Shown piece after piece: positions 631 to 63,853 of a DNA stretch of 64,000 nt; position 1 is the first letter of the stretch, and every line of letters starts with the position of its first letter. The translations under genes and the position numbers were made by a program. Source of the stretch: an uncultured virus (IMG/VR IMGVR_UViG_3300014205_009008) (Duplodnaviria; Heunggongvirae; Uroviricota; Caudoviricetes); IMG/VR virus record IMGVR_UViG_3300014205_009008, one strand, 5' to 3'. The notes beneath the pieces are model-generated. The model did not search any database, was not told the origin of the DNA, and saw only the letters and a list, made by a program, of their open reading frames with translations.

Positions 631-649
631 AACATAATTTGCACCTTAA

Positions 650-1681: not shown

Positions 1682-1682
1682 T

Positions 1683-2582: not shown

Positions 2583-2588
2583 CCCTAA

Positions 2589-2616
2589 AGGATAACAGAA
2601 GAATCACAGGAGTCAA
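2589..2616 (-). promoter_or_regulatory. sigma70-type promoter, leaderless spacing
   Basis: TTGACT-N16-TATCCT with extended -10 TG; 6 nt to the ATG at 2582. Confidence 0.55.
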
Positions 2617-3866: not shown

Positions 3867-3871
3867 TTAAT

Positions 3872-3901
3872 AGTATAGAAAATAGAATGCGCCACTGTCA
3901 A
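3872..3901 (-). promoter_or_regulatory. sigma70-type promoter, leaderless spacing
   Basis: TTGACA-N18-TATACT; 5 nt to the ATG at 3866. Confidence 0.7.
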
Positions 3902-3918
3902 TCAAAACAAAAGAATAC

Positions 3919-4467
3919 ATGGACTTTGACGAGCTAATACCAGTACCAGCAAAACGGATAACCGGAAAGTCCAACCTATGGAATAGTGCACATGCAGGCC
4001 TTCGCAAGCTCTGGAACAAAGTAACCACACCAAGCACAAGAACCAACGAAAACATAGGACGAGCGCTAGCCTATATCACGGCAGCTCCATTAATTCTAGC
4101 AATCGTTTGGTTTGCCATTTCAATAATAGCATTTATTCCAGAAGGTAGCGCACTGACCGCAATAGCCCACACAAACTCTAAAATTGAAGCCAAGAGCAAA
4201 GAATTAGTTATTGCCTCAGCTGGAGACTCCTTCACTGTAAGCACCAAAGATACCACACTCAAAGTAACCAGTCAGAATATCAGTGAATTTGCAGTGCTAT
4301 TAGGGGATTCAGGCATATTGGATCCAGTAGAAGCCCTAGAGCTCAAGAAACAATCACCAAAAATCATTGTGTGGAATGGAAAACTAACAACCGAAAGAGC
4401 AAAACGTTTAGAACTCGCAAAGATCGCAGAGTTACAAATGGCAGATAAGAAATTGCATGAAAAATAG
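3919..4467 (+). CDS. Hypothetical membrane protein
   Basis: 182-aa ORF with one hydrophobic segment. Confidence 0.5.
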   Translation: MDFDELIPVPAKRITGKSNLWNSAHAGLRKLWNKVTTPSTRTNENIGRALAYITAAPLILAIVWFAISIIAFIPEGSALTAIAHTNSKIEAKSKELVIASAGDSFTVSTKDTTLKVTSQNISEFAVLLGDSGILDPVEALELKKQSPKIIVWNGKLTTERAKRLELAKIAELQMADKKLHEK

Positions 4468-4516
4468 TATCATCATTAAAGCCACACTGATACTTAGGTA
4501 ACGTAAACATAAATTT

Positions 4517-5110
4517 ATGCGAACAATATCCATCAAGGACCTATTTTTTGAAAGGTACAAGTACGAGTGCAAGCACGACTGGCCAGAAAACTGCTTTATA
4601 CAAGGGGGAGACAAGGGAATTGTCTTTAATTCCTCAGCAGCAGAAGCATTCGAAAAGCCAGTTGAAACCGTCCTAACAACGATAGGTGTTACCAATGATA
4701 TCCTCCCGCAAAAAACCAAGGAATACTACACAACTTGCTTCTTTGAGGCCTTTCCAAGGGAGCCTGATACTTTTCTCAGGGGAGAAGGAGCTACAATGGA
4801 GGAAGCGGAAACCAAGTGCTGGGAGGACTATCAGAAAGTAGTCAACTGTAAAAGCCACGAACCAGAGCGCCGCAACCGAAGAGACGGATATGGGTTCTGC
4901 AAGCACTGTGGAATGGGCGGCATGTTCTTTGAACCGCTAGAAACGTGTAAAATATGCGGGGTACCAACATACGCCTTTTCAGACACTGATAATAATTGGT
5001 ACTGTAAAGCACACGAGAGTGCCATTCCTGAAGACAAACAGAGTACAATGTACAAAAGCTACCTGCGCCTAACCCAAATGGATAAGGAGTCCAAAAATGA
5101 ACCCGAGTGA
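4517..5110 (+). CDS. Hypothetical protein with Cys/His clusters (possible Zn binding)
   Basis: CKHC, CKIC and CKAH; preceded by AAACATAAATTT. Confidence 0.55.
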   Translation: MRTISIKDLFFERYKYECKHDWPENCFIQGGDKGIVFNSSAAEAFEKPVETVLTTIGVTNDILPQKTKEYYTTCFFEAFPREPDTFLRGEGATMEEAETKCWEDYQKVVNCKSHEPERRNRRDGYGFCKHCGMGGMFFEPLETCKICGVPTYAFSDTDNNWYCKAHESAIPEDKQSTMYKSYLRLTQMDKESKNEPE

Positions 5111-11936: not shown

Positions 11937-12928
11937 ATGAAGATAAGAACTCTACTCACAATAGTAATCGGCATCCCATGTAGCGTGATGGCTGACCCAT
12001 ACCCCAACACGCAGTCGCCGGAGCAAGCATCCTACACGTCACCATATGTATATTCGCCAGCCATCACAGCACCAGCCATCACCACAGGATTTAACGATGA
12101 TCCACGAGTCTTTACCAACTGGCAGGACTGGTCGCTAACACCTTACTCCGATTGGCAAAACTTTAACGCCATACAACACCTCGACTCCACTTGGGGGGCA
12201 TACTTCAAACCTATAAACGGACCAGTAGATGTACAAAGTGCCACAACCGAATGGCTGCAGACCAGACTGGTTGCAGCAGCATCTCTCCTGCGCAATACAG
12301 TGCCATACGGGCATCACCACATCCAAGTTTGGGACGTACCAAATACCACTCAGTGGACAGATGCAGGTTACGAGGCAGGCTACGGAATTGACTGCTCAGA
12401 CTTCACACACTGGACTTACAATTACGGGCTAGCATCCAACTCAAAACCGGGGTAGCAGAACAAGCCGCCATGACATCGGCTGAAATATATCTTGATGATG
12501 GAAGCGTGGTTCTAGTTGAAGGGCAGCATCTATTCGACGTTCATAACGGATATGTCAAAGACTACAACTCACTCGTATCCAGTCTGCAGCCCGGCGATCT
12601 TCTATATATTCGCAGTGACCCAGCACTCTCAAATCCTATCTCCCACGTTATCATGTGGCTCGGTGGATTAGCTACAGATACAAACGGAATCGATGCATAC
12701 TTTGTCACAGACAGCCACGGAGATGTAGTGTATGATTCCAACGGAAACCTTATACCATCTGGACCAGAAATCCGACCATTCGGAAAAGACAGTTACTACT
12801 TTGGCTCATTCGACCACGTAGTGCGTTACGCACCATTGAATATTGTTCCAGAACCAACAACAATAGGGCTCTTTGTTTCGGGAGCGATCATGCTGGACAT
12901 AAAGCTCAAGAAACGCCGCAAAGAATGA
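11937..12928 (+). pseudogene. Secreted NlpC/P60 peptidase with PEP-CTERM anchor, split by a 1-nt frameshift near 12432
   Basis: Signal peptide and GIDCSDF in ORF1; LQPGDLLY, SHVIMWLG and VPEPTTIGLF...KKRRKE in ORF2. Adding one base restores YGLGIQLKTGVAEQAAM. Confidence 0.8.
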
Positions 12929-13557
12929 AACTAGGGACTACAATGTCTGAGGATCTGATCGCTGAGTGGACAACGCCAGGGCTAATAGGAGTTTCACGAC
13001 TGCACGAAGCATGTATGAACGGTAACCTAGAAAAGGTCCCAAAACTTCTAATTACTGACGAATATCTGAGTCAAACAGAAGCTAGAAGCAAAGAAACCTC
13101 GTTTCACTACTTGGCCATAAGCAAGGCATTAGATAAACTTCCTATCGGCGTACTAAACCACCAAAACCTTACCAAGCCAGATGCATTGGGCACTTCCGTA
13201 CTACACATAGCAGCCGAAAATGGGAGCATAGAACAGATACCAAAAAATCTCCTAACTAGAGAAATCTTATTAGAAGGTGATACACGCAGCGTACTTCACC
13301 TTGCAGCGAGGTACGGGCACCTCGACAAGTTACCAGACGTATTTCTGCCAGAAGATTATCTTATCGAGATAAATCAATGGACACCATTCCATTTGGCAAA
13401 ATGCTGGGGCCACATGCACCAACTCCTGGGAGTTGACCTGCCCAAATCCTGTGAAAAGAGTGTAGATAAGGAATGGTGGGAGAAAAATCAACGATTGCTT
13501 CATGTTCAGGAAGAACTTATAGTTAACACCACAACACCCGACCTCGACCTATTTTAA
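12925..13557 (+). CDS. Ankyrin-repeat protein with WW/DLF tail
   Basis: SVLHIAAENG and SVLHLAARYG; ends KEWW...DLDLF. Confidence 0.85.
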   Translation: MKLGTTMSEDLIAEWTTPGLIGVSRLHEACMNGNLEKVPKLLITDEYLSQTEARSKETSFHYLAISKALDKLPIGVLNHQNLTKPDALGTSVLHIAAENGSIEQIPKNLLTREILLEGDTRSVLHLAARYGHLDKLPDVFLPEDYLIEINQWTPFHLAKCWGHMHQLLGVDLPKSCEKSVDKEWWEKNQRLLHVQEELIVNTTTPDLDLF

Positions 13558-29914: not shown

Positions 29915-31375
29915 ATGAACGCTGCTAAACAAATAGAAGTCTTGAATAGCCTGCTGAAAAGTAAGAACCCCGACTACCAAGAGCTAGCCAAACTCAAGCT
30001 TGCCGAACTGGCAGAACCAGTTTCCAACGATGCCGATATAGCCAAACTACGCAAAGCAGCCAAATCAGGAAAACTACACAAGCTGCCAAAGGCGATATTC
30101 ACACAATTTAACATCCTTGGTATCAAAGTCGACGACACCATCATCCACACCGCTGCCAAATACGGGCACCTAGACCAGTTGCCAGAGGAGCTACTTACTG
30201 AGCGAAACCTACTAACCCCAAATAAAAAAGGATACACACCGTTGTACCTGTGCGCTGAAAATGGGCACCTCAACCAAATCCCCAGTTGGATGTTGACAGC
30301 CAAAAACCTAAGAGCAAACGAGGAAAAAGGTAGGTCAGCGATTAGCGCAGCTGCAAGGACCAAGCACATAGATCAAGTACCAAGCAAAGCATTCGAAGAA
30401 ATAGTCATACAACATGACATAAAATACACAAAAGTCAAAGGCAGCCCGCCACGTCTAGGCGAGGGGGCACACGTTCTACACGAGATGCAAACATACGATT
30501 GTCTGCATCAGGCGCCAAAAGCACTGTTGACCGAAAAGCGGCTACTCGCGCCAGACCCAATAATGGAATACACCATGGTACACTGGTTAGCAAACAGTGG
30601 GCACCTAGACATGGTACCCGCTAGCATCTTGGTACCTAAGAACCTCCTACTAAAGACAACCACCGGAAAGACTGTCCTCCACTGTTGCGCAATATCAGGA
30701 AATCTTGACGCCGTCCCAAAACAGTATATTACATTAGAAAACGTACTCGTAAAGAACAACGATGGAGATACAGTACTTCACGCCTTTGCAGAATACGGGC
30801 ATTTGGACAAGTTACCAGCAACCTTGTTAACCAAACAATCTGTGGCGATAAAAAACAAAGCGGGGTTGTCGACAATACACATGGCTGCCGGAGCTGGCCG
30901 CAAGCACTGCAGGGCGGGGCTCGCACAGATACCAAAAGCATTTATCACCCAAGAATCACTACTAGAATACGGAGCGAATGAGCATACAACCGTATTCCTA
31001 GCAGTCGCAAGCGGCGAGCTAACCAATATCCCAACAGAGTTACTCACTGCAGAAACCCTACTTGCGGAAACCCCAAACAGACAAAATATCCCCCTGCACA
31101 GGGCAGCAGAGCTTGGTTACTTGGACCAGATACCTAGGGGAGTATTGACATCAAGTAATCTACTCGTGCAGGATTGTCGTGGAAATAGTCCACTCTCTAA
31201 TGCCTTTAAACACGGGTACTCAGATCAACTCCTAGGACTAGAATTGGAAGACAATCAGCCAATCCGGGAAATAGTAGGGGACGACTGGTGGGCTAGGAAC
31301 AAAAAATTATTAGCAGATAGGGCATGTCTGACAACAACAACCTCAACTGATGGGAAAAGTATAGACTTATTCTAA
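29915..31375 (+). CDS. Ankyrin-repeat protein with WW/DLF tail
   Basis: About 10 repeats of GxTxLHxxAxxGHLDQxP; ends GDDWW...SIDLF. Confidence 0.9.
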   Translation: MNAAKQIEVLNSLLKSKNPDYQELAKLKLAELAEPVSNDADIAKLRKAAKSGKLHKLPKAIFTQFNILGIKVDDTIIHTAAKYGHLDQLPEELLTERNLLTPNKKGYTPLYLCAENGHLNQIPSWMLTAKNLRANEEKGRSAISAAARTKHIDQVPSKAFEEIVIQHDIKYTKVKGSPPRLGEGAHVLHEMQTYDCLHQAPKALLTEKRLLAPDPIMEYTMVHWLANSGHLDMVPASILVPKNLLLKTTTGKTVLHCCAISGNLDAVPKQYITLENVLVKNNDGDTVLHAFAEYGHLDKLPATLLTKQSVAIKNKAGLSTIHMAAGAGRKHCRAGLAQIPKAFITQESLLEYGANEHTTVFLAVASGELTNIPTELLTAETLLAETPNRQNIPLHRAAELGYLDQIPRGVLTSSNLLVQDCRGNSPLSNAFKHGYSDQLLGLELEDNQPIREIVGDDWWARNKKLLADRACLTTTTSTDGKSIDLF

Positions 31376-31377
31376 AC

Positions 31378-32778
31378 ATGTCACCTTTAAAACAACTACA
31401 GGTACTGGAAACCCTACTGAAAAGTAAGAACAAAAGCATCCAAGAGCTTGCCAGAATCAAACGGGCAGAACTGGTAGCACCTATTGCTCAAAAGGAAAAT
31501 ACACTCAAATTGCGCAAGGCAGCAAAGACTGGCACATTGCATAAGTTACCAAAAGGACTATTTACACTAGATAACCTGTTGGGACCCATAATTTCCGATA
31601 CAGTCTTACACACAGCCGCAAGGTATGGGTACCTTGACCAAATACCAGAAGAGTTCATTACGGAGCGCAATCTGTTAATCCACAACCGGGAAGGAAATAC
31701 CCCGCTGCATCTATGTGCAGAACACGGACATCTAGATCAGATACCAAAAGAGATTTTAACACCTACCAACCTGCTAATTAAAAACCCACAAAACGGACAA
31801 TGCCCATTTAAACTAGCGGCAAGCAACAAACATGTAGACCAATTACCGCCAGCCAGCGTGGAAGCCCTACTTTCAGTTGATGTTATGGAAGGTAGTAACG
31901 GTCTGCATGCAATCGTATTTGGCGGATGCTTGGATCAGATTTCCTCATCGTTGTTGACGGAGAAAAACGTCTTATCCAGATCAGAACCAGAAGGATGTAC
32001 CATCCTGCACTGGCTGGCCTGCGAAGGGGACCTACACCAAGTACCCAAAGAAATGCTCTCGCTAAAAAACTTGCTGCTACAAAACAGTCATGGAGATACC
32101 GCGCTCCATTACGTAGCCGAACATGGCAGTTTTTGGCCAATTCCAAAACAACTTATCACCATAGAAAATCTAATGGCAAGAAATAAAGCTGGTGACACAG
32201 TCTTCCACGCATTTGCCAGCCACGGCAAACTGCACAAGTTACCGCCACATTTATTAACCACAGAATCTCTCTTAGCAAAAAATGTCGCAGGTCTTACGCC
32301 TATATATGTAGCCGCCAAAGCCGGTATTATAACTCAAGTCCCAAAGAAGTTTATCACGCAAGATGTACTACTGGAACGCGATAAAGAAGGATTAAACACA
32401 ATATTCAATGTAGTTATAGCAGGACAACTACGGTACATCCCAAAAGAACTCCTTACTGTGGAAATTATGATCACCCCAGCTTTTGATAAGGGGGAGACAC
32501 CATTACACCGAGCGGCATACATGGGGCATCTTAAACAACTGCCGCCAGAATTATTGACTGCAACTAACTTGCTCGTTAAAGATAAAACAGGGGCCACTCC
32601 GATTGACTTTGCATTTGAAGGCGATCACGCTGACCAGCTACTTGATGTTGACTTTTCCGACAGCCAAGCTGTCCGTAAAATAGTTGGAGAAGAATGGTGG
32701 CAGAAGAATCAAAGGGCTGTTTTCGGCAAGAAAAACCTTACCGTTACAGCACAAACCATAGAAGTAGATATATTCTAA
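31378..32778 (+). CDS. Ankyrin-repeat protein with WW/DIF tail (tandem paralogue)
   Basis: Same N-terminal LLKSKN...KLRKAAK cap as the preceding gene; ends GEEWW...EVDIF. Confidence 0.9.
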   Translation: MSPLKQLQVLETLLKSKNKSIQELARIKRAELVAPIAQKENTLKLRKAAKTGTLHKLPKGLFTLDNLLGPIISDTVLHTAARYGYLDQIPEEFITERNLLIHNREGNTPLHLCAEHGHLDQIPKEILTPTNLLIKNPQNGQCPFKLAASNKHVDQLPPASVEALLSVDVMEGSNGLHAIVFGGCLDQISSSLLTEKNVLSRSEPEGCTILHWLACEGDLHQVPKEMLSLKNLLLQNSHGDTALHYVAEHGSFWPIPKQLITIENLMARNKAGDTVFHAFASHGKLHKLPPHLLTTESLLAKNVAGLTPIYVAAKAGIITQVPKKFITQDVLLERDKEGLNTIFNVVIAGQLRYIPKELLTVEIMITPAFDKGETPLHRAAYMGHLKQLPPELLTATNLLVKDKTGATPIDFAFEGDHADQLLDVDFSDSQAVRKIVGEEWWQKNQRAVFGKKNLTVTAQTIEVDIF

Positions 32779-33377
32779 TGCCAGCAACACTTTTCAACAT
32801 GCCCGATCAAGGTTACACTGCACACCACATAGCTGCATGGACTGGCACGCTACACCGGCTGCCAAAAAAGGAACTCACCTTAGAAAACCTTACAGCGAAA
32901 AGTAAAAGCGGCTATACACCTTTAAGGTTTGCAGCTGAAAATAAGTATTTAAACCAAATCCCAACGGAGATACTACTCGAAGAAAACCTTATACCGGGAA
33001 CAACAATTTTACATTGGGCGGCAAAATACGGGTATTTGAGTCAGCTGCCAAAAGAAATCTTCACTCGGAAAGCACTGCGTTCGGAGGACAGAAATGGGGA
33101 GACACCATTCCATATGGCGGCTTGGACAGGGCACCTAAAGCAATTCCCGCGAGAACTCTTAACTCCCGAGAACCTACTATACAAAGGAAGCGCTATCCCA
33201 GCACCACTTCAGTTAATCACCACACATATAGATGACTTGCTAGGCATAGATTTTTGCGGAAACCAAGAAGTCCGAGAAATGGTTGGCGAGGACTGGTGGC
33301 ACAAGAATATCCAAGTAATAAAAGCCATGGAAGAATTGTCCAAGCCATACCGTAAAGTGGAAATTGAACTATTCTAA
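32778..33377 (+). CDS. Ankyrin-repeat protein with WW/ELF tail
   Basis: GETPFHMAAWTG; ends GEDWW...EIELF. Confidence 0.85.
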   Translation: MPATLFNMPDQGYTAHHIAAWTGTLHRLPKKELTLENLTAKSKSGYTPLRFAAENKYLNQIPTEILLEENLIPGTTILHWAAKYGYLSQLPKEIFTRKALRSEDRNGETPFHMAAWTGHLKQFPRELLTPENLLYKGSAIPAPLQLITTHIDDLLGIDFCGNQEVREMVGEDWWHKNIQVIKAMEELSKPYRKVEIELF

Positions 33378-34903: not shown

Positions 34904-35342
34904 ATCGCTACGCGTTAAATAACCAAAACATCATGCAAATGGACAAGCTCAAAGAATTCATTGATTCACGCGTCAAGGCAGTTAAAGAGGCTCCAGAGAG
35001 GCGAGGACAGTTTCTTGTTGATTCATTCAAAGATCACTGTATGGGAGCAGTCTACTTTGCCAAGGACGCAGGTATCATCGACACAATCGATGAAAGGCGC
35101 ATGATGAATTATGTCAGTGCCCAATTCGATATCTTGGAGCAAGAATTTGAAGCATGAGCGGGATCACCTTTCAATCCGATCACGACAAGGACGATTGCCC
35201 GCATGTTATCATGATTCTATCCAACGGTAGGGCAGTTGCCGACCTTGGAAGGGGAATGGATTGCAGTGATGCTGAATGGGAAGAGCTGCGCAATCGGATA
35301 CAGGCTAGTTTTCCCCAAAAACAAATTGAAGAATTAACGTAA

Positions 35343-35425
35343 GCTGGTGTGGCGGAACGGTATACGCAGCAGACTTAAAATCTGCTGGAGGTAACTTCAT
35401 GTGGGTTCGAATCCCACCACCAGCA
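35343..35425 (+). tRNA. tRNA-Leu(TAA)
   Basis: Acceptor GCTGGTG/CACCAGC, anticodon arm GCAGA-CTTAAAA-TCTGC, long variable arm; CCA not encoded. Confidence 0.9.
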
Positions 35426-35527
35426 TCCCTTTATTCTTTGCTCTAAAGATACCAGTTTGGGTACAGCATTTGAAGATTTCCAGCCTTACCTAGCTTAATA
35501 AGAATTGAAGCGGTAGCAACCCCAAGG

Positions 35528-35557
35528 TTGACATGCATTACCTAAAAGCGCTATCCT
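35528..35557 (+). promoter_or_regulatory. sigma70-type promoter, leaderless spacing
   Basis: TTGACA-N18-TATCCT; 5 nt to the ATG at 35563. Confidence 0.65.
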
Positions 35558-35562
35558 AGTCA

Positions 35563-36744
35563 ATGACTTCGTGGCATGAACGCGCTAAAAATGGGCAGTT
35601 GCATACACTGCCACACAGCGACCTTGCAGTGCTGATAATTAAAGATGCTGAGGGTAAAACCCCAATGCATTTAGCTATTGAATCGGGGTATTTCGATAGC
35701 ATCCCATCAAACTTCATAACAGAGAGAACCATGGTGACTAGGAACGAATTTGGGGAAACGCCACTACACCTAGCAATTAACAAAGGTTTTGCTGGAAAAT
35801 TGACATCATTTATGACTCCCGAGTACCTACTGCTTCGGGACAAAGCCAATAGAACCGTGTTTCATGCTCTCGTAGAAGCTGGGACAGTCAATTACGCACC
35901 AAAGTCCTTTCTAACAGAAGATCATTATCTAATTAAGGACTCGAGAGAAAACACCCCTCTGCACATGGCAGCCTCTAGCGGCCACTTGGATCAGGTTCCA
36001 GCACAAATATTACGTGAGCACATCACAACTGCTAAAAACGATTATGGGCGCACTGCGCTTCAGATAGCAGCCATGGAAAATCACTTGGACCAAGTTCCAA
36101 TAGATATACTAACAGTTGAAAATCTAGCTACGGCTGACAAAGCTGGGTGGACGTCACTTCATAATGCGGCGGCACGGGGGTACCTGAATCATATACCACT
36201 TCCAGTGCTAAGCTCGAAAGCAATGCTAATGCCACTACCCAACGGCGATACGCCATTCCATCTCGCAGCACAAAATGATGAACTGGATAAATTCCCAGAG
36301 GAAATACTCACAGCAAAGAATCTACTCCATATCAGTGATGTCCCTGGAAATAAATTTAGGAATACGGCGTTTCATTGGGCAGCTGTAAGTGGACATCTAA
36401 ATCAAATTCCTGTAGATCTTCTGACCAAAGAAAACCTACTAATGCGAAATAAGCGAGGTGTATCACCGCTAATGTATGCAGCTCGAGAAGGAATACTTGC
36501 GCAAGTACCAAGTGAGCGGCTGGTGGCTGAAAGCCTTATGGAAAAGGATGACGATGGAATAACATCGCTGCAATACGCAGTATTACGGGGGGAGCTAGGT
36601 CTCCTTTTGGGAGTGGATTTTTCAGACTATCCAGAAGCGCGCAAGATAGTAGGAAACGAGTGGTGGGAACAAAATGAAACGGTCACTAAGCATAAGGAAG
36701 AACTGAATAGCACAGTCGAGGTCATTGACATTGATATATTTTAA
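35563..36744 (+). CDS. Ankyrin-repeat protein with WW/DIF tail
   Basis: GETPLHLA-type repeats; ends GNEWW...DIDIF. Confidence 0.9.
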   Translation: MTSWHERAKNGQLHTLPHSDLAVLIIKDAEGKTPMHLAIESGYFDSIPSNFITERTMVTRNEFGETPLHLAINKGFAGKLTSFMTPEYLLLRDKANRTVFHALVEAGTVNYAPKSFLTEDHYLIKDSRENTPLHMAASSGHLDQVPAQILREHITTAKNDYGRTALQIAAMENHLDQVPIDILTVENLATADKAGWTSLHNAAARGYLNHIPLPVLSSKAMLMPLPNGDTPFHLAAQNDELDKFPEEILTAKNLLHISDVPGNKFRNTAFHWAAVSGHLNQIPVDLLTKENLLMRNKRGVSPLMYAAREGILAQVPSERLVAESLMEKDDDGITSLQYAVLRGELGLLLGVDFSDYPEARKIVGNEWWEQNETVTKHKEELNSTVEVIDIDIF

Positions 36745-37739
36745 AAGATATCCATTTCAGCCATATCAGTAGCCTCTGACAATCCAGCTTTCTCAGCCTT
36801 AACCTGATCGCTTCTCACCTTCCAGTCAGGTCCTAACTTGTCCTCAAGATTCTCAGGTAGTTCCACGCCAAGCAAGGCGTCCTCACGTTTAAATCTCCGA
36901 AAAACTGTTATCACGTCACCGGCAGCCTCGACATTCCACATATCTTTCGTCATTCTAGGCAACAGCAAAGACAATCCAGTCATATTATGACCGGCACATA
37001 TAGTCATTAATGGCAAAATATCAGAATCCAAAATATACTCCTTTACAAGATGCAACTGGTTACACTTAGCAGCAAAATGCAGCGGAGTTACACCTTTGCT
37101 ATTTGAGACATGTAACATCTCACCATCAACAACTGGGAAAACCGCAGAATTATTGTTTGGGCCAGCTACCTCCTCTTGAAGGTCAAGAAGAAGACCAATC
37201 TGCCCCCATTTTGCAAACTGATGCAACACAGTCTCACTTTTCTCACTCTTTTGTGATCTAAGCAATAAGTTTTTCTTCGTAATGTAGGGGCGTATAGTTT
37301 CGAATATACTCGAGCTAAGCTCCTTAGCCTCATCATCGGTAAATCTACTCTGCGACAGGGTCTGCTTGTTAGAGCGTAGAAACCCAAAGTTTACAACAGC
37401 GGCGTGAAAAGGTGTATACCAATCATCCTTTCCAGGTGTCTTGGTCAACATTGCCTCTGTGATATACGGCTTGACTATTGGAAACCATTTGGAGTTAAAA
37501 GCATAGTTAAGCGGGAAGTTCCCGCTAGAATTTACTGAATGGACCAGACCATGTTTTAGCACCACAGCAGGTATCCCACCTCCTTTATACTTCCTCAGGC
37601 TGTGGGCCTTTAGTTGTCTTGGGCTCTTTTTGGAAGTATCCATCAACCCCAGAGTGGAATGCAAGAAGGATTCGCCCGTAACATCGTTAACCTTTGTCCA
37701 CGCCTCAAATACAATAGCCTCCTCTCTTGACATCACCAT
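36741..37739 (-). CDS. Divergent ankyrin-repeat protein with DIF tail
   Basis: GVTPLHFAA; ends LLGVEL...EMDIF. TTGACG-N17-TATACT lies 5 nt before the ATG at 37739. Confidence 0.8.
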   Translation of the reverse strand: MVMSREEAIVFEAWTKVNDVTGESFLHSTLGLMDTSKKSPRQLKAHSLRKYKGGGIPAVVLKHGLVHSVNSSGNFPLNYAFNSKWFPIVKPYITEAMLTKTPGKDDWYTPFHAAVVNFGFLRSNKQTLSQSRFTDDEAKELSSSIFETIRPYITKKNLLLRSQKSEKSETVLHQFAKWGQIGLLLDLQEEVAGPNNNSAVFPVVDGEMLHVSNSKGVTPLHFAAKCNQLHLVKEYILDSDILPLMTICAGHNMTGLSLLLPRMTKDMWNVEAAGDVITVFRRFKREDALLGVELPENLEDKLGPDWKVRSDQVKAEKAGLSEATDMAEMDIF

Positions 37740-43898: not shown

Positions 43899-46800
43899 AT
43901 GTTTACTCGTCACGCATTAGCAGCCATAAAATTAACAACACTTCTACTCGCACTAGCCAGCATACCGACCGCAAGCGCACTCTGGTCAGGCACATACAGG
44001 TTTAATAATGTGGATTTGGAGGCAGTTCCAGCCTCACCGAGCAACGCGGATAACATCATTATCAATGGTGTCTCATTCTCATGGATACCAGTAAATTCCT
44101 ACATAAACGGTGGCGGGCTGTCGTGGGCCGGTTATACCATCAAAAGGTTCTACGACTACCACAATTATAAATGGTTGTATCTTTATCAAGATTTGGGCGG
44201 GCAGCAATATGTTGGGACAGCGGTCTGGCAATCATCTTCATCGCCGACCTTTATTACTGCCTTCAACAAGAACCCAGACGCTACCAGATGCATGGGAGAT
44301 CCAATTGATACAGGGACAGGCAGGCAGTTTCAAAACATCCCACTTATCCACAACCCAGAAAACTCATTACTGGACATAAACTATTCCATTGATTTTGCAA
44401 GAAACGAGTCAACCTGTAATTTCGACCAGTATTTTATCAAAGTAGGAACTAACCTAGAATTCTACGAGGGCACACAACGCATCGCCAAATTTATTGGAGC
44501 AGGAACACAATACACACCAGATGTGGAAGCCAGTCGCACATTCAAAGGAAAAATCATAGAAACCGGAAGCGTACTCCGCTTTCTTTCTGGCGGAGAAGAA
44601 AAGCAATACACATTAACATCCGCCAAGTATATTCTAACTTCTAGAACCAAGAATGGGCAAACCATAACCAAGTCAGGTTCCAAATTTATCGACTCAGCAA
44701 CCGGAGATTGGATCAATCTTATACTGTATCCCACTCTTGGCAGCTTTAGCTCATCAGCAGGTGGTTACAGCACAGTTAACGGTAATAGCCTAAACGACGC
44801 AAGCGGAATAAATCTCAAAGCAGTACGTACTGGGGATTCGACAGTATTTAGCGTTAACAATGTCACGCTCTACACTGACATATTAGTCGGAGGCAAAGTT
44901 ACACAGCAAACAGACGCGCTTGGACACAACTCATACTTTAACTACAGCTTCGGGGCTACCCAGCTAACAACTTATACAGACCGTAGGAATAACAACTGGC
45001 TGAGCGAATTCGACAACGCAAATCTAGTTGGCAAACAATCGCCGCTAGGAAACATCATTGAGTATACATACGATAGCAATAATCGTAAAATTACCGAGAC
45101 GGACGAGAACACCCAAACCACCCAATTCGGTTACGGAACATACGGTGAAACAACCAGCATAACAGACCCAAAAGGAAATTTCGCCCTGTTCGGGTATAAT
45201 TCCGATCTTTATTTAACCAGTTATCAGGACAGAGAAGGTAACGTAACTTCGCTTACCCGCGATTCCAACAACTTAGTTACCCTAACAACCAAGCCACTCA
45301 GCCAAACCACGGCAGCCACATACAATACTAACAGACAGCCACTGACTATAACGAACGAATCTGGGAATACAACAACCCTAGGGTATACAAGTGGCAGGAA
45401 TACACTAGTCACATTCCCATCAACCAAAACAATCGGGTACGGGTATAACTCAAGCGGACTAAAGAGCACTGGAACAATAGGTGGATTCACGACGAATTAC
45501 AATACGTACGACGGGATGGGGAGGCTAACTAAGGTTACATCGCCAAGGGGAGGTATAACACAAGCAACCTACAACTTCAGGAGTCAGGTAACCAGTTCAA
45601 CGGATCCGCTCAACCAAGTAAGTTCTGTCACATACAACGGAAATGGTTACCCGACAGTCGCAACCAATCCAGACAGTTCGACTACTCAGTTTGGTTATGA
45701 TGCCGAAGATAACCAGACATCACAGACAGACGAACTAGGAAATATTAGCACAGCAACTTATGATAATGATAACAGGCTAACCGGTGAAACTGATGCTGAT
45801 GGTGTGAGTTATTCGATTGTGCTTTCGCCAACAGGAAAAGTACTACAGGTCAAAAACGATGCAGGACAAACCATCTCAACCGCCACATACGATGCAAACG
45901 ATAACCTGGCTACGATAGCAGATGCAAGTAGCAATACAACAACGCTGGCATACGACAAAGAAGACAGGGTTACAGGCATCACCAGACCAGATACAAAGCA
46001 AACAACCATCACAAGAGATGCGCTAGGCAGACCAACCACAGTCAGCCGTTTCGGCAGGGTCGCGAATACAGCCTACACCCCAACAGGCAAGGTAAGCACT
46101 ATAAGCCTAGCTTCACCAAGTGCCACACCAATAACGCTAGGTTACGACGTAGATGACGCACAAACGTCAGAAACAACCGCACTCGGAAAGGTTGTGTCAC
46201 AGCAACTTAATAGCAGATGGCTACCAAGCCAGATCAATAACAATGGGTTAGTAACAAACCTAACCTACGACGCAGATGGAAACATCGACACGGCCAGTGA
46301 TTCAGTTGGTACGATTACCTATACAACGGACCTATTAGGTAGGATTACCGGAACATCTGAGGTCAGAAGTGGGGGAACAAATACATCCAGCACAAGCTAC
46401 AATTGGAGAAACGAACCAACCAGTTACACCGATTGGAACGGTGCTACAGTCGGATATGAGTACAATGTACGAGGTGACAAAACCAAGGTAACATATCCAG
46501 GCAACAAGCAGGTAATCTATACCTACACCGCAGCATGCAGATTACAAACGGTCACCGACTGGAACAGCAATGTAACAACCTACACCTACGATGGGGAGGG
46601 CAGACTGACCACCAAGGCAAGACCTAATGGTATTACAGAATCCAGAAGTTACGATTTAAATAATAGGGTCACACAGATCAAGGAACTACAAGGTTCTACG
46701 ATCATTACCAGCCTAGACATCGAATACAACTCCATCGGTAAGATCACCAAGGAGACCTACTTCCCAGCTCCAGCAGGCACGCTGGACAGCTCAAGTAACC

Positions 46801-48233
46801 CGACCACAATATTGGAGAAGGTATATTCGTATCTGGATACAGGCGAGCTAGCAGGTGTTAGTGCGAATGGATCAGTATTCACTTATACATCTGATTCGAG
46901 AGCTAATCCAACCAACCTAGGTATCGTATCCAACCAGACTTGGTTGTCCAACTGGAGCGATACAATCACAGTAAATGGTGACAACGAGGCTACCAGCTGG
47001 AATGGTACAGCAATTACAAGAAATGCTCAAGGCACAATGCTATCTGGCCCAACTGGACTTACCAACTCTAGCGTAACCAACAAATCCTTCACAGTTAACG
47101 CTAGACAGCAGATCACGGACAATGGTAGGACATACGACTCCAGAGGCGAATTGGCGGGCCAGACCGGAATAACTTATTTGGTAGATGCTTATGGGGACAG
47201 GCTGACCAAGACAGATACTACAGGTACAAGCTATTACATATACGGAGACGGATTAGAATACGCAATTACTCCATCAGGCAACGAATACTATCATTACGAT
47301 AACAGAGGCAGCGTTACAGCTAAAACAGACGGTGCAGGCACAATAACTGGAGCTTGGGTATACGAGCCATTTGGAGTTATACTAGCCTCAACAGGCACAT
47401 CAGACTTTCTATTCTTAGGTAAGTTTGGATGTGCTACAGAATCGGATTTGGGAGTCTACAAATTGGGTGCAAGGTATTACGCTCCAAACCTACGACAATT
47501 CATGTCAATTGACAGCGTTATTGGTAGTGGTAGCGAGCCAAACAGCCTAAACAGGTATGTTTATTGCATGGGTGATCCAGTTAACTTCATTGATCCTAGT
47601 GGGCTATGTCCCAATGCGCTTACAGAATATGGTGAAATAGCAACAGGAGCATTCTTTGGAGCCATTAAAGGTAACCGAGACGGGTTAGGAGGTTTAGTAG
47701 CAGGAGCTACAGGCGGTTACTGGACAGGAGCCTTTGGCAGCGATGTTGATTCCAGCAATTATAGAATAGGCATATATGGAGGAGGAATTGCGGGAGGTGC
47801 TGTCAGTGCAGCAGGAGGAGAACTAATTGGAATAGGAGCAGTAAAATTAATCTCGTTTTTAGGGCGCGAGTCTTTAGCTATTATTAACGCTGGAAGGCTA
47901 CCATGGGCTGCGGAAGCAGGAGCCATAGGCACAGGAACATACCGCGACACGTTCTTCGCAGCAAATCCTACCCTAAAGGGACTAGTATGGGTACACCATG
48001 CAATTGAGCAACAAGTACTGAGAAAATACCCAGGTCTGTTCACAAGGGCAGAGCTAAATGCATTGTCTAACCTAAGAGGTATACCTAAGGCAATAAATAA
48101 CAAATTGCATTTAAGCACCATGCGTAAGGAATGGAATGCATTTTACAATGCCAACCCAGCCGCAACCAGAGCACAAATAGAAGCACAAGCATCAACTATT
48201 GACATTAAATACGGCACTCAATTTGCGCCCTAA
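43899..48233 (+). CDS. Rhs/YD-repeat polymorphic toxin with signal peptide and putative HNH-fold nuclease C-terminus
   Basis: GDPIDTGTG, YD repeats, ARYYAP...PVNFIDPSGL core end, Gly-rich linker and VHHAIEQ...NLRGIP...LH tip. Confidence 0.9.
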   Translation: MFTRHALAAIKLTTLLLALASIPTASALWSGTYRFNNVDLEAVPASPSNADNIIINGVSFSWIPVNSYINGGGLSWAGYTIKRFYDYHNYKWLYLYQDLGGQQYVGTAVWQSSSSPTFITAFNKNPDATRCMGDPIDTGTGRQFQNIPLIHNPENSLLDINYSIDFARNESTCNFDQYFIKVGTNLEFYEGTQRIAKFIGAGTQYTPDVEASRTFKGKIIETGSVLRFLSGGEEKQYTLTSAKYILTSRTKNGQTITKSGSKFIDSATGDWINLILYPTLGSFSSSAGGYSTVNGNSLNDASGINLKAVRTGDSTVFSVNNVTLYTDILVGGKVTQQTDALGHNSYFNYSFGATQLTTYTDRRNNNWLSEFDNANLVGKQSPLGNIIEYTYDSNNRKITETDENTQTTQFGYGTYGETTSITDPKGNFALFGYNSDLYLTSYQDREGNVTSLTRDSNNLVTLTTKPLSQTTAATYNTNRQPLTITNESGNTTTLGYTSGRNTLVTFPSTKTIGYGYNSSGLKSTGTIGGFTTNYNTYDGMGRLTKVTSPRGGITQATYNFRSQVTSSTDPLNQVSSVTYNGNGYPTVATNPDSSTTQFGYDAEDNQTSQTDELGNISTATYDNDNRLTGETDADGVSYSIVLSPTGKVLQVKNDAGQTISTATYDANDNLATIADASSNTTTLAYDKEDRVTGITRPDTKQTTITRDALGRPTTVSRFGRVANTAYTPTGKVSTISLASPSATPITLGYDVDDAQTSETTALGKVVSQQLNSRWLPSQINNNGLVTNLTYDADGNIDTASDSVGTITYTTDLLGRITGTSEVRSGGTNTSSTSYNWRNEPTSYTDWNGATVGYEYNVRGDKTKVTYPGNKQVIYTYTAACRLQTVTDWNSNVTTYTYDGEGRLTTKARPNGITESRSYDLNNRVTQIKELQGSTIITSLDIEYNSIGKITKETYFPAPAGTLDSSSNPTTILEKVYSYLDTGELAGVSANGSVFTYTSDSRANPTNLGIVSNQTWLSNWSDTITVNGDNEATSWNGTAITRNAQGTMLSGPTGLTNSSVTNKSFTVNARQQITDNGRTYDSRGELAGQTGITYLVDAYGDRLTKTDTTGTSYYIYGDGLEYAITPSGNEYYHYDNRGSVTAKTDGAGTITGAWVYEPFGVILASTGTSDFLFLGKFGCATESDLGVYKLGARYYAPNLRQFMSIDSVIGSGSEPNSLNRYVYCMGDPVNFIDPSGLCPNALTEYGEIATGAFFGAIKGNRDGLGGLVAGATGGYWTGAFGSDVDSSNYRIGIYGGGIAGGAVSAAGGELIGIGAVKLISFLGRESLAIINAGRLPWAAEAGAIGTGTYRDTFFAANPTLKGLVWVHHAIEQQVLRKYPGLFTRAELNALSNLRGIPKAINNKLHLSTMRKEWNAFYNANPAATRAQIEAQASTIDIKYGTQFAP

Positions 48234-50305: not shown

Positions 50306-51018
50306 TGAGCGCATCGCCCAACGTAAACACCGCCATCACCAACGCGCAGACAATAATCGGTGCCAGACATACAAAGACTCCACGAGTCACCGTACCACAC
50401 CGGATAATCCTGAAATCCACAGGTACATTTATCACCACTGAAAGTGGCAAGACTGTGTGGAAAACAAAAGGCCACGCCCAAGCCGCACTGCGAAACGACC
50501 TGGACCACATATTCAGATATGATATGAAGCACACCAAACTTACCTACGCGGAAGTCAAGGAAGCCACGCAGGAATTCATTGACACCATGATTGAGTTCGT
50601 TCCATATACACCAAACATCGCATGACACTCTCCGATTTTCTCCTCATAGCACGTAATGCTTATGCCTTGGACATCTGGCCAGATAGTCCAGATGGTTCCA
50701 TCTGGAAGTTGAAGGACGGAATTAGAATGGGCATCACCGTCAAAGGAATCCCAACTAGCTACGATCAGAATACTCCAGGCGAAGCAATCAATAACGCCTC
50801 AAAATTCTCCATCCATAATGGTTGTTGTGGAAACACCCTTACGGTATTGGCCGAAGACCCAGTCAAACAAACAGCGCCCAATAGCTTCACGGTTATCCAT
50901 ACATCGTTAGCTAAAATCCCAACCGGAGAAACGGACGATGAAGGCTACGAAATTACCAAGGATGGGCCGCCAGTCAAATCCTACGTAAAAGTGCAGTTAC
51001 TTTCCCAAACATAAAAGC

Positions 51019-51928
51019 ATGGGATTAAACAGTTGAAGGAATAGTTGTACAAACTTGTGCATTTTGGTTTGTTTGAGTGACTACGCATCCCGTAAAACGC
51101 GCTACAGTATTCAGTTAAAATCTCGTTCATATTTTTTCCGCACAGTATTTGCTCTTTTGTTCTAAATGGTGATTCTTCTAGGATTGTTATCTTCACCTGC
51201 ATTGCCTGACATAGCTGTTCAATAATTTCATAGCCAAATCGTAGCAACCTGTCTTTGTGCATTAGTACAATGTGCCTTACATTGCCTGATAATACTTGTG
51301 CAATTAATGCGGCAAGGAAAGGCCTATGGAGTTTACTTATTTGAATTGGGCAGGATGAAGGAATTAGTGGATAAAAATACCGCAAGAACTGCGGGAATAT
51401 ACGCCAGTGGAGACGAAGGTCACGCGCCAGACAAGAGGTCCGGTGAAAAACCATGCGCCGTAGAAACTGGAACCAAATTAGTTGTTAGTAACGGACTGGG
51501 TTGTGACCATGCACAACTTTGAACAGTCTTTGGAGTTCGGAGCCTCATATTACGCAAAAATAGTGGGATTTTTACTTGCTACAGAACAGAAGTACACAAC
51601 CGTCACAAAGTACAACGAGAACACCGGCAAACCGCACGGGAAAGAGAAAGAGGACTACCTAGAAGTAAGTATTCAAGACAAAAAAATGAGCAGAGAGGTA
51701 TCGGAGGAAATCATCGACTCCGACTATGAATACGACGGACTAATAGGCTACCAGACAACCGACCAGCAAGAAACCGTACTAGGGTTGGCACTCGTCGAAA
51801 GTGAAGATCACAACTACGGACAGGAGCCCCAAGAATTCGAGCCTGCAGTCCCCTCAGAAGTCAAAGACTTTGCAGCCAAGCATGGACTCACACCAAAGTT
51901 CTACCTAGTCAGTTACTGTAGTTACTAA
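51019..51928 (+). pseudogene. Hypothetical gene (MGASYYAKIVG...) interrupted at codon 2 by the IS607 derivative
   Basis: AAACATAAAAGC-ATG at 51019 rejoins in frame with 51541 onward. Confidence 0.7.
51024..51540. mobile_element. Internally deleted IS607-family element (tnpA fragment on minus strand, tnpB 3' end/omegaRNA-like on plus strand)
   Basis: Minus strand gives HKDRLLRFGYEIIEQLC...FYGMRSH. Plus strand gives TARTAGIYASGD...ETGTK. Removing it restores ATG GG|A GCC TCA. Confidence 0.8.
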
Positions 51929-51958
51929 GGAAGGGTTTTCAGCAGTGTGCGAATTAGT

Positions 51959-52330
51959 TGATCAAAGTTGAGCATTTGTCGAAATAAAGGTTACATCCGA
52001 GCTATTTTTAGGGTAATATTTGTATATCCTCTTAAATGAGGTTTGATCTTTATGGACGGAAGAGTTAGTTAGTCGTCTCTGACGGTGTGCCAGATGGACA
52101 ACACTGAACGAGCTTCAACCTTCTGCGCTGGTTTACCTGTGCAGATTACCAATACTCTTTTGTACTCATATAAATATACCCGAACGAATCCATAACTAGT
52201 TTATGGTTGGACGATTGTGCCAATTTAGTAAGGTAATAGGGCTGCCGAAGTCCTGTGCTCCGTACCTCTCAACGATGTTTAAACACCTGAGTAGCACAAA
52301 ACGCTTTCATCAAATGCTCAACTTTGAGCA
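51959..52330 (+). ncRNA. Candidate ~370-nt structured RNA (alternatively an invertible or MITE-like segment)
   Basis: 20-bp terminal inverted repeat with 1 mismatch, several nested stems with G-U pairs on the plus strand, and no ORF. Confidence 0.5.
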
Positions 52331-52402
52331 GGAAAGCTTATAACGGTATATTACTAAAGCAAAATTTTAGGCTACGCCTAAATTACCAAAAACAACATTA
52401 CC

Positions 52403-52708
52403 ATGAGCCGAAAATCCAAGCTCCTTAATCGCTTGTCTCCCAAAGGCAACCGACTGGATAAAGAGACTACAGACGAAATCATCCAGCAAGGATTTTACCA
52501 CAAGCCAAGGGGCCCCGTATTTGTCCGCAAAGCCAAAAATGCTGAACTATCACACGAGCTGGAAACCGGATCTGTTCGCAATCGCGCCTACGGCGGTGGC
52601 AGCCACAAGGGCAAGCCAATCTTCGGTCACAATGGGCCAGCCGAACGGGACATTATTGCCAAGGAAATCGGCAAACAAACCAAAGCACGCAAGCGTAAAA
52701 AGCTATGA
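52403..52708 (+). CDS. Small basic hypothetical protein
   Basis: Lys/Arg-rich; follows a GC-TAC-GC hairpin with a 7-bp stem. Confidence 0.5.
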   Translation: MSRKSKLLNRLSPKGNRLDKETTDEIIQQGFYHKPRGPVFVRKAKNAELSHELETGSVRNRAYGGGSHKGKPIFGHNGPAERDIIAKEIGKQTKARKRKKL

Positions 52709-61495: not shown

Positions 61496-62881
61496 TCAAA
61501 AGAGATCCATCTCGGGTCGTTCATCAACCTCAACAAGAGAGTTTATGCATCTTATATGTTCTAGATGTGCCTCCCACCAGGTTTTACCGCCGCGCAACGG
61601 CTTGTCTAAGTCCCTTTTATAACTATCCGGAACAAGCAGGCTTGTAGGTATACGGTGCAAATATCCATTGTCTGCAGCCAGCTGCATAACATTACGCCCC
61701 CACGATACATCTACTTCGGCAATATTTTCAACAGTTAACAAACTACCTAAAAACTCATCATACCCGTCATCCTTGGATTGTGCCCCTATAGCCCATGCCA
61801 AAACGGAATGCCCACCTTCAGCATTAGGCGGAGTATCAAGAAGGGATAGAACCTCAGGGGTTAATAACTCCCTTGGTATTTGGTTCAAACATCCAGCGGA
61901 TGCCGCCTCATGATAAACAGTATACCACTTGTTACTAAGGCGCATATTCTCATCGGTCAACAATTCCTTTGGTGCACGATCTAAGCACGAATGCTGAGCC
62001 AGTGTGTGTAAAACTGTAGAACCATGTTCATCTACCCGCCTGTAATCATCCAGTTTTAACAGCCCCTCGGGTAGTCTGTTTAAATAGCCCGTAGCAGCCA
62101 GCTCATGTAACATATTTGGAGCCCCAGACAGTATTTTCTCAAAATTACGGGCAACATAGCCATTTGGTAACTGGTCAAGTTCTCCAAACATCACCAAACT
62201 CTGAAAAGCTGTTGTTCCACGAATATTTCTCAATAGCAGATTAGGAAGGTTAATGCACTCTGGTGGTAATTCCTTAATCCAGCCCAGACCAATCATTTCA
62301 TGGAATACCGTAGCCCCAGCTGCGTCCGTCTTGCTAAAGTTTTCGTTAGTCAATATATGCAGTGGTAAGTTGTGAATATTACCATACATTGCTGCCTGCC
62401 TAAAGCAGGTAGGTTTTCCAGGAATTTCCTCATTAAGGTACCGCGATGTAATCAGATCACTAGGGGCATGATCCCAGCCAAACTTAGCAGCCTTACTTAA
62501 CACCTCGTAGCCCATATCAGTAAGTGTAGCATCTGGTTGCAAAAATAGCTCTGCAGGAAGTTGCCCAGCCTTCCCAAGTCTCACAGCATGATCCAAAACG
62601 GTCTGCAGCTCAGTATAGGGTTCGTTAAACAAAGCCCTTGTCATGGACTCCTTTGGCACCTGCGCTATTTTATCATTCGAAATCATCGCGGCCATAACCG
62701 TCACACCAAGAGCATCTCTCAAGCCCAAATTTTCCTCAGTCAGAGCCCAATCGGGAATTACAGCATCAGGGTAACGTGCATAATTATGTAAGGTTGTAGA
62801 GCCTGCAAAGTCACGCCGAACCCAATATTCAGGGTCCTCAGGCGTAGGTCCAAACAACAATTCCCTTAGTTTCTTAAGCAC
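61496..62881 (-). CDS. Ankyrin-repeat protein with WW/DLF tail
   Basis: GSTVLHTLA-type repeats; ends TWW...EMDLF. TTGCCT-N18-TATAAT lies 5 nt before the GTG. Confidence 0.85.
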   Translation of the reverse strand: MLKKLRELLFGPTPEDPEYWVRRDFAGSTTLHNYARYPDAVIPDWALTEENLGLRDALGVTVMAAMISNDKIAQVPKESMTRALFNEPYTELQTVLDHAVRLGKAGQLPAELFLQPDATLTDMGYEVLSKAAKFGWDHAPSDLITSRYLNEEIPGKPTCFRQAAMYGNIHNLPLHILTNENFSKTDAAGATVFHEMIGLGWIKELPPECINLPNLLLRNIRGTTAFQSLVMFGELDQLPNGYVARNFEKILSGAPNMLHELAATGYLNRLPEGLLKLDDYRRVDEHGSTVLHTLAQHSCLDRAPKELLTDENMRLSNKWYTVYHEAASAGCLNQIPRELLTPEVLSLLDTPPNAEGGHSVLAWAIGAQSKDDGYDEFLGSLLTVENIAEVDVSWGRNVMQLAADNGYLHRIPTSLLVPDSYKRDLDKPLRGGKTWWEAHLEHIRCINSLVEVDERPEMDLF

Positions 62882-63853
62882 ACTTAATTATAGCACCAGC
62901 ATAATGGAAAAGGCAACCAAACACACCAAACAGAATAACCGACATGAAAATTTATCGGACAGCATTTCAATGGAACGAGACATACGACACAACCGCCCAC
63001 TGGATAGATATCATTAAACAACTTGGATACATCGTCTATGATATAGCCCCAAACGGAGCCGCCTACTGCGAGTATGCCATCAGCAAAAGAGTAGTCAAGA
63101 AATACAAGGGAAAGGAAGTGTAGGCAAAAACATAAATAACGTGCCAGATATTTACCTCAACCTTGACCAGCAAGCGCACAAGATCGTCATACGCGACCTA
63201 TACGACCATATTCTGCACAAATCAGTAACATTGGAGGAAATAGTCATATCCAATGAGGACTGCACCGTAGTAATCAAGGGTCAACCAATCCTTCGCTGGG
63301 ACCGCCACCTGCATTACCCAACTGCAGAAAATCACCCGATAGCCGCGTACCTATTCTTGCGAGCTATCGAAGATATCATACTCTCTAAGAAAGAAATCAC
63401 CCATTAACAATTATGTACAAGAAACCAATATATTGCGTCGGACTAGCCCACAACTTTGGTCGCACAGGCGAGTTTTTAGGAGCATCAATGCGCTACGCAG
63501 GATTCGTACAGGTAAGGTGGGACGGGGAGAACAGGTCAGTACAGCTCCAAAGAAAAGATATCATCATGACCTCCACGCTTGAGCGACCAACTGCCTATGT
63601 GGACCGCGCTAAATGCATTCCAAGTACGCAGCGCAAACACAACTACCCAAAATCAAGGAAACCTGCCAGCTCATTTAGCCTCTTCTCAAAATCCAAGCTC
63701 CGATGCCAGAGCAAGTGTTCAGCGTCAGGAACGCCATGCCAGAAGCGCAAAGGTCATAAAGGAACACATTCTGGATGGATATACAAGTGGGGGAAAAAGC
63801 ACTCACGCGCATAAGCTGTTGACTAGCCGAACTAAATAGCGCTAGAATCACTC

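Follow-up and report, generated by a model that had tools for sequence, protein, structure and literature searches.

A probable gene-less derivative of the IS607 family in a large ankyrin-rich, virus-like contig

Introduction

Insertion sequences of the IS607 family have no terminal inverted repeats. They carry an imperfect repeat near the ends, located at unequal distances from the two termini and bound by dimers of the transposase TnpA. Their termini are GG, and they insert at GG without duplication of the target (PMC6188088, in its outline of the family). Here, we analyze a 64,000-nucleotide stretch of DNA (the window) from an uncultured virus of the Caudoviricetes (IMG/VR record IMGVR_UViG_3300014205_009008), with emphasis on a region that a first-pass annotation had read as a free-standing plus-strand RNA of about 370 nt. 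Positions 51932–52346 very probably represent a 415-bp non-autonomous derivative of an IS607-family insertion sequence, gene-less and similar to miniature inverted-repeat transposable elements (MITE-like), which separates two genes on a large virus-like contig rich in ankyrin repeats. The region is a fairly ordinary relic of mobile DNA and not a new RNA gene.

A guide RNA associated with the nuclease TnpB has been described for the insertion sequence ISXfa1. This right-end element RNA (reRNA) of ∼150 nt runs ∼17 nt beyond the right end and contains three stem-loops, the third of which overlaps the TnpA repeats (bioRxiv 10.1101/2023.08.09.552727, in its account of ISXfa1). The putative scaffold in the window resembles the TnpB-reRNA of that account in its location at the tnpB 3′ end and right end of the element, in its approximately three local stem-loops, the last overlapping the transposase-binding repeats, and in a guide that would lie just outside the end. 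It differs from the ISXfa1 RNA in that it is known from sequence alone, matches no curated family, and is carried without a nuclease gene.

A study of IStrons reports that TnpA acts on mini-insertion sequences (mini-IS) and that the guide RNA (omegaRNA) works in trans with TnpB (bioRxiv 10.1101/2023.11.20.567912, in its description of mini-IS). Like the mini-IS and the palindrome-associated transposable elements (PATEs) mentioned there, the window element lacks genes and consists only of transposon ends and a guide RNA, the latter being putative in the window. However, the mini-IS are engineered, and the natural PATE is of the IS605 type, with a Y1 transposase and hairpin ends, whereas the window element is natural, of the IS607 type, located in a virus-like genome, and devoid of a group I intron. 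A word search of the literature found no description of an IS607-derived MITE or gene-less element among the titles and abstract openings retrieved.

Ends and boundaries of the element

The region contains a 20-nt inverted repeat (51959–51978 and 52311–52330) in which 19 of 20 bases pair, as the first-pass annotation had noted, and which can be extended to 26 nt at 88% (51959–51984 and 52305–52330). Each arm is, in addition, an internal dyad, an observation that also stands: TTGATC/TTGAGC in the left arm and TGCTCAA-CT-TTGAGCA in the right arm. The arm 20-mer has two matches in the window, compared to 0.01 expected, and two matches were reached in none of 100 shuffles. TTGAKC motifs are present in both arms and at position 52043.

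The repeats are subterminal. The end of the element that, in full-length relatives, is next to the tnpA 3′ end (A-end) consists of the arm and about 27 nt, ending with ..AACCC, while the opposite end (B-end) consists of the arm and about 15–16 nt, ending with ..CGG. By comparison with these relatives, the left end of the window element corresponds to the tnpA side and the right end to the tnpB side, with the repeat located 27 nt inside the former and 16 nt inside the latter. The A-end forms a 47-nt block (51932–51978, plus strand) that is 89–98% identical in the metagenomic loci L005, L006, L011, L012, L016, L018, L021, L023, and L032. The 17-nt core of the right arm is kept in 10 of 10 aligned B-ends, with two changed bases each in L017 and in a decayed copy upstream of the element.

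All 13 A-ends of this lineage, including that of the window, have distinct flanks directly outside ..AACCC. Metagenome contigs aligned with the window have loose ends at 51931/51933 or stop at 52333–52347. Since the flanks of related copies are unrelated directly beyond the A-end and B-end points, the true bounds of the element are 51932 and 52346 (415 nt, plus strand), and the feature is wider than the 51959–52330 originally proposed. A start of GGG and an end of CGG are found in every copy. The sequences flanking the window element (..AAGGAA and TATATT..) are unrelated, indicating that there is no target duplication. In its GG termini, lack of target duplication, and imperfect subterminal repeat at unequal distances from the ends, accompanied by short inner motifs, the window element resembles the IS607 family as outlined in PMC6188088. 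It differs from that family in having no genes at all. No similarity to TnpA or TnpB was detected within 51932–52346, and the element is therefore classified as non-autonomous.

We also considered a classical MITE, which is defined by terminal inverted repeats and a target-site duplication. This assignment was rejected, as the repeats are subterminal and the duplication is absent, and "MITE-like" is used here in a loose sense only. The window element shares with classical MITEs a short, non-coding, multi-copy nature, inverted repeats, and derivation from an autonomous transposon via internal deletion, but the presumed enzyme is a serine recombinase rather than a DDE transposase.

The ATG within the arms was evaluated as the start of a conserved small protein (MLNF(E/D)Q...) and discarded, as the frames differ at each locus and mostly stop within 6–30 codons. 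The outward ATG of the arms also opens long frames into the flanks. These include, in L032 (3004–3570), a frame of 188 aa that weakly matches hydrolases, in L027 an ankyrin-like frame starting at position 145, and in the window (51509–51928) a frame of 139 aa. Such frames may stem from insertion within genes, with N-terminal fusions as the result, or may be due to chance (about one frame in three).

Full-length relatives

Pairs of the same arms, in the same outward arrangement, are located 2.3–2.5 kb apart in L012, L032, L017, L020/L022, and L036. The DNA between them encodes an IS607-family serine transposase and a TnpB-related RuvC nuclease, whose genes are divergently transcribed. Each gene ends in an arm, and the arm encodes the last residues of TnpA (..NAQL). 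The TnpB-like gene is located at 498–2372 (minus strand) in L012, at 974–2674 (plus strand) in L036, and at 2990–4708 (minus strand) in L020, and is divergent to tnpA in all three loci. The tnpA and tnpB genes of IS607 elements are usually arranged in tandem, and the divergent arrangement, with each gene ending in an arm, sets these relatives apart from the family.

The transposase assignment is supported by the NF033518 profile (IS607 family transposase, cut-off 110 bits), which scores 124.8 bits in L012 and, over the full profile length, 157.9 bits in L036. Pfam identifies a Resolvase domain in L012, and MerR/HTH_17 and Resolvase domains in L032. Elements that share their ends with the window copy thus encode a serine-recombinase TnpA with a helix-turn-helix (HTH) and a resolvase catalytic domain. 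This N-terminal MerR-type HTH and the accompanying TnpB accessory gene are features that they have in common with IS607, IS1535, and ISC1926, as these are presented in PMC6188088.

The TnpB-related proteins of these elements are 566–624 residues in length. The 624-residue protein of L012 matches TIGR01766 with 35.3 bits (cut-off 32), and a Foldseek search with an AlphaFold model of the TnpB-like protein retrieved RuvC and Cas12f chains at an E-value of about 1e-4, via the confident core of the model. Sequence searches of the PDB with the protein and its profile gave no relevant match, and only nine relatives were found among the 5.8 billion proteins searched. The wider clade, which includes P0001–P0009, is rare and consists of proteins of 538–643 aa; this length and the lack of a Pfam match distinguish them from the IS607 family. 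Only one cysteine is invariant in the alignment of nine sequences, and thus a zinc ribbon is not conserved in the clade.

Among the loci recovered, only L036, which belongs to a GC-rich sister lineage and derives from a metagenome-assembled genome of Hyphomicrobiales, is an intact full-length element with related ends; its TnpA has 198 aa.

Copies in other contexts

Near-identical copies of the element (93–98%) are embedded in different surrounding DNA in metagenomes from landfill, lake, and freshwater samples. In two runs, from lake and freshwater samples, it is found as a separate contig, of 401 nt in X2 and of 387 nt in X11; these contigs cover 51949–52347 and 51955–52333, respectively, and differ from the window by 5 to 7 letters. 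Many variants of it occur as short contigs across the runs X2–X17. The flanking genes (51553–51909 and 52369 onward) are not covered at ≥80% likeness in these runs. Contigs frequently break at 51931/51933, 51978, 51541, and 52330. Together, the breaks and the separate short contigs reflect the behavior of a repeat that is present in several contexts. No joints were seen in the comparison of contigs, a type of data that does not reveal low-frequency inversion or excision.

When metagenome contigs from JGI were scanned with the 20-mer of the arm, 28 loci were identified. The entire element is present in L024, with 93% identity over window positions 51929–52351, and in L013, with 72% identity. 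Partial copies are located at contig ends in L027, L030, and L016, and nine more loci carry only the 47-nt block 51932–51978. The gene-less form is thus found in five unrelated insertion contexts (the window, L024/L030, L027, L013, and L016), consistent with an IS607-type mobile element. A second scan, of genome contigs, yielded five loci, in which both arms of a full element are present only in L036; the others (L033–L035 and L037) contain the 20-mer and neither end tail. No relative of the region was detected in phage and plasmid collections with megablast or blastn. Scans of IMG/VR with patterns of the element gave no match, and those with the neighboring proteins retrieved only distant loci that lack the element.

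In run X1, the letters at loose ends are those of the flanks of L012 and L032. The contigs with these letters have depths of 15.5 and 16.4, similar to the 14.2–14.4 of the window pieces. Full-length copies therefore co-occur with the window genome in the sample.

The GC-rich sister lineage is also represented by L007, L014, L015, L017, L019, L025, L026, and L028, where the 17-nt arm is followed by a tail of ..CACTGCTGGGTAACCC with eight different flanks.

Interior of the element

The right-hand part of the element (52205–52346, plus strand) corresponds to the 3′ end of tnpB and the B-end, as defined by local alignments to L012 and L032. This is the position, at a tnpB 3′ end and transposon end, in which an reRNA is located. 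Given this position and the precedent of the ISXfa1 reRNA, we infer a scaffold on the plus strand with a guide just to the right of 52346; by analogy with ISXfa1, the guide would occupy 52347–52366, directly outside the B-end. The right-hand ∼140 nt may thus be a plus-strand guide-RNA scaffold for the TnpB-like nuclease, a proposal based on position and a few compensatory changes.

A 15-mer in this region, GGGCTGCCGAAGTCC (52239–52253, plus strand), is common to the window, L012, L024, L030, L032, and, with one mismatch, L013. It forms a hairpin with a 5-bp stem and a GCCGA loop. The sequence is read as GLPKS in L012 and as GCRSP in L032, in different frames, which points to a constraint at the nucleotide level. 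The hairpin is followed by a stem (52254–59/52293–98) whose pairing is kept with different letters: TGTGCT/AGCACA in the window, ATTGTT/AACAAT in L013, GTGC/GCAC in L012, and GACG/CGTC in L032. Similarly, the CCATAA/TTATGG hairpin at 52190–52206 is CTGTAA/TTACAG in L013.

The left interior contains a 27-nt block specific to gene-less copies (52025–52051), which includes a CCTC/GAGG hairpin and a further TTGATC. All 27 positions are identical in the window, L024, L027, and the 72%-identical L013, and the block is absent from the full-length elements examined. Any role of the left interior as an extra TnpA site or as a promoter is a guess. A tblastn search with 12 TnpB-like sequences against the gene-less copies returned only noise; the best E-value, 0.013, was obtained in a database of 1.4 kb and is not trusted. 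A sub-segment of 40 nt (51982–52021), with a 5-bp inverted repeat AAATA/TATTT at its edges, is inverted in L024 (819–857) with respect to the window, as seen in a blastn piece and in the alignment.

Alternative interpretations

The same IS607-derived insert could be an inert fossil that has lost all activity in this genome, both as DNA and as RNA. This is possible, if somewhat unlikely. All transposase copies of this lineage that were seen are damaged, and the neighboring copy at 51021–51540, described below, has clearly decayed. However, copies across contexts and habitats are still 93–98% identical with both arms intact, and subfamilies that are only 72% identical have both retained the 27-nt block and the 15-nt hairpin.

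The originally proposed structured non-coding RNA, a free-standing viral gene of ∼370 nt closed by a terminal helix, is very improbable. The stretch 51959–52330 folds better than shuffled sequences, with z-scores of −4.2 on the plus strand and −5.4 on the minus strand, but this good score is due to the arms. Without them, the interior (51985–52304) has a z-score of −0.95 on the plus strand, where 13 of 100 shuffles do equally well, and of −2.33 on the minus strand; the interior of the 72%-identical L013 scores +0.63. The interior thus folds no better than shuffles, an outcome that the first-pass annotation had itself named as counting against a single nested RNA. G-U pairs had been taken to favor a plus-strand transcript, but the minus strand folds at least as well.

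The inner stems listed earlier are present in the minimum free energy (MFE) fold, but the long-range nested ones break in homologues. Helices 4 and 5 of the window fold are paired in just 55% and 71% of the cells of a four-row alignment. RNAalifold, applied to four copies, retained only local hairpins and dropped the long-range helices, with an unfavorable covariation term. When the MFE structure of the window is placed on the four-row alignment, 11 pairs are changed on both sides, compared to 4.5±1.7 in shuffles (0 of 500) and 2–4 in slid controls, a count that depends essentially on one diverged row (L013) and on a structure taken from the window itself. Compensatory changes are found in the hairpins at 52190–52206, 52084–52105, and 52254–98. 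A few local hairpins are genuinely conserved, while the global nested structure is not.

The invariance of the 27-nt block across 72%-identical copies would also be compatible with an RNA gene. Against this, a 40-nt piece is inverted in L024, the same arms bound protein-coding transposons of 2.3–2.5 kb, and the unit behaves as mobile DNA in at least five contexts. Rfam, with its models of the group I intron and RAGATH-18 among others, has no match in 51700–52600 at E≤10 or in six related loci at E≤1, and its gathering thresholds likewise yield none. The earlier failure to recognize a tRNA, tmRNA, RNase P, or intron is consistent with this result, and the three tRNAs of the window lie elsewhere.

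The alternative suggested earlier, in which a serine invertase would act on the two dyad arms and invert the DNA between them, is most improbable. The window element resembles segments of the Hin/Gin type in its inverted dyad sites, which have a 2-bp core, and in its association with serine recombinases, and a remnant of a recombinase gene lies ∼500 nt upstream. The suggestion was correct with regard to the type of system. However, the enzyme is the IS607 TnpA; the nearby recombinase is a truncated IS607 transposase rather than an adjacent invertase, and no promoter or gene is placed such that an inversion would switch it. The ends are unequal, with tails of 27 nt and 16 nt that differ in sequence, and the element occupies many genomic contexts. 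The orientation of the interior is constant with respect to the ends in all six copies (complete in the window, L024, and L013; partial in L027, L030, and L016), and thus nothing suggests an invertible switch.

IS607-family IStrons, with an intron at one end and a guide RNA at the other, do exist (bioRxiv 10.1101/2023.11.20.567912, in its description of these elements), and the window element is co-oriented with the surrounding genes, but a miniature IStron, in which an IS607-borne group I intron self-splices from a read-through viral transcript, is hardly credible, as the Rfam searches above found no group I intron, the putative RNA and an open reading frame (ORF) that extends outward from the A-end of L027 are on opposite strands, and the element is intergenic, leaving nothing to splice back together.

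Upstream copy and surrounding genes

A second, decayed IS607-type element is located at 51021–51540, 391 nt upstream of the main element and in the same orientation (plus strand). Its A-end is diverged, its tnpA, located on the minus strand (50981–51454), is truncated, and its B-type end has a third arm (51509–51525) followed by ..TTCGG. The TnpA of L012 aligns with 51307–51044 in a tblastn search (43% identity, E-value 1e-18), and NF033518 matches profile positions 103–187 only, corresponding to the C-terminal half, with 67.9 bits against the cut-off of 110. The alignments of the two ends score 32 and 28, compared to shuffle means of 17 and 16 and shuffle maxima of 36 and 31, and are suggestive only. 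Other contigs diverge at 51541, the end of the upstream copy. An ORF of 140–148 aa (51482/51509–51928) begins within the third arm.

The main element lies in a gene-free gap of 474 nt (51929–52402). The region had been described as the largest such gap in the window; based on ATG-started ORFs of at least 80 aa, it ranks third, behind 62696–63412 and 34904–35562. The gap at 34904–35562 holds a tRNA-Leu.

The window reads mostly on the plus strand (83 of 94 ATG-started ORFs of at least 80 aa). It contains the three tRNAs, a tyrosyl-tRNA synthetase, an RHS-repeat protein (43899–48233), and YkuD, GmrSD, and HNH domains. Searches of IMG/VR and of phage and plasmid collections gave no close relative of the window as a whole. 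Proteins with ankyrin repeats number at least nine, for example at 2211–3866, 12925–13557, 29915–33377, 35563–37739, and 61496–62695, and two RNase H genes and an M3 peptidase are also present.

An 11-nt motif, TAGGCTACGCC, occurs eight times in the window with at most one mismatch, always on the plus strand, compared to 0.65 occurrences expected by chance. The occurrences are at 7985, 13564, 14278, 18546, 23350, 52368, 53188, and 57998, usually 20–45 nt upstream of an ATG, and one of them lies 22 nt to the right of the element. This motif is probably a virus-specific promoter or regulatory site. Scans for sigma-70 promoters and terminators gave results at chance level.

Discussion

Several observations weigh against an IS607-type element with a guide-RNA scaffold, or against parts of this interpretation. 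No intact transposase of this AT-rich lineage was recovered: the tnpA of L012 has a stop in the HTH, the tnpA and tnpB of L032 are both split, and the tnpA in the window is truncated. No empty insertion site was found in the data searched. The TnpB-related proteins score 24–34 bits against the curated guided_TnpB cut-off of 100 bits and match no Pfam family, and the AlphaFold model of the TnpB-like protein is poor overall (mean pLDDT, the predicted local distance difference test score, of 56), with only the RuvC core being informative. Known reRNA families have no match at the locus or at six related loci. The consensus fold of 10 B-ends contains the arm hairpin only, and it is uninformative because the cross-lineage MAFFT alignment is poor. 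The right part is traversed by a frame of 46 aa that is still similar to the C-terminus of TnpB (GLPKS..STKR), and part of the conservation may therefore reflect recent coding ancestry instead of an RNA function. Lastly, the left ∼215 nt of the interior have no counterpart among the full-length elements examined.

The features of the element nevertheless suggest how an IS607-derived insert of this kind might function. The 20–26-bp inverted repeat would be a pair of subterminal dyads bound by TnpA dimers. TnpA made elsewhere may move the element in trans, by a cut-and-paste exchange at the terminal GG that leaves no target duplication; the 93–98% identity of dispersed copies suggests that such mobilization occurs and that the element may be active at present. 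Plus-strand transcription of the right-hand ∼140 nt, a legacy of the tnpB 3′ end, would yield a guide-RNA scaffold, with the 16–20 nt just to the right of 52346 as the guide. The TnpB-like nuclease, acting in trans, could then re-cut emptied sites, so that the element is kept in place.

A more elaborate version of this mechanism is doubtful. In it, the element would be a stand-alone guide-RNA cassette, composed of TnpA-binding ends, the reRNA scaffold of the rare clade of long TnpB-like nucleases, and its own conserved leader, with the 27-nt block as a promoter or processing signal. Such a cassette would parasitize both enzymes of full-length copies, which co-occur in the sample at similar depth: TnpA for its movement, and TnpB for its return by copying once it has been excised. 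If this were true, a transposon residing in a large virus would have a hyper-parasite of its own.

These findings serve mainly to correct the initial reading. With its long inverted repeat and good folding z-score, the region resembled a new large RNA, and the signal proved to be that of transposon ends. The element is nonetheless a natural gene-less member of the IS607 type, from a little-sampled sub-lineage with divergent tnpA and tnpB genes and an unusually long TnpB-like nuclease, and it appears to be spreading among large virus-like genomes rich in ankyrin repeats. It occurs in samples from landfill, lake, and freshwater sites. Should its right part be a working guide RNA, the element would offer a compact scaffold for this clade of nucleases and would exemplify dependence in trans on both enzymes of the transposon.

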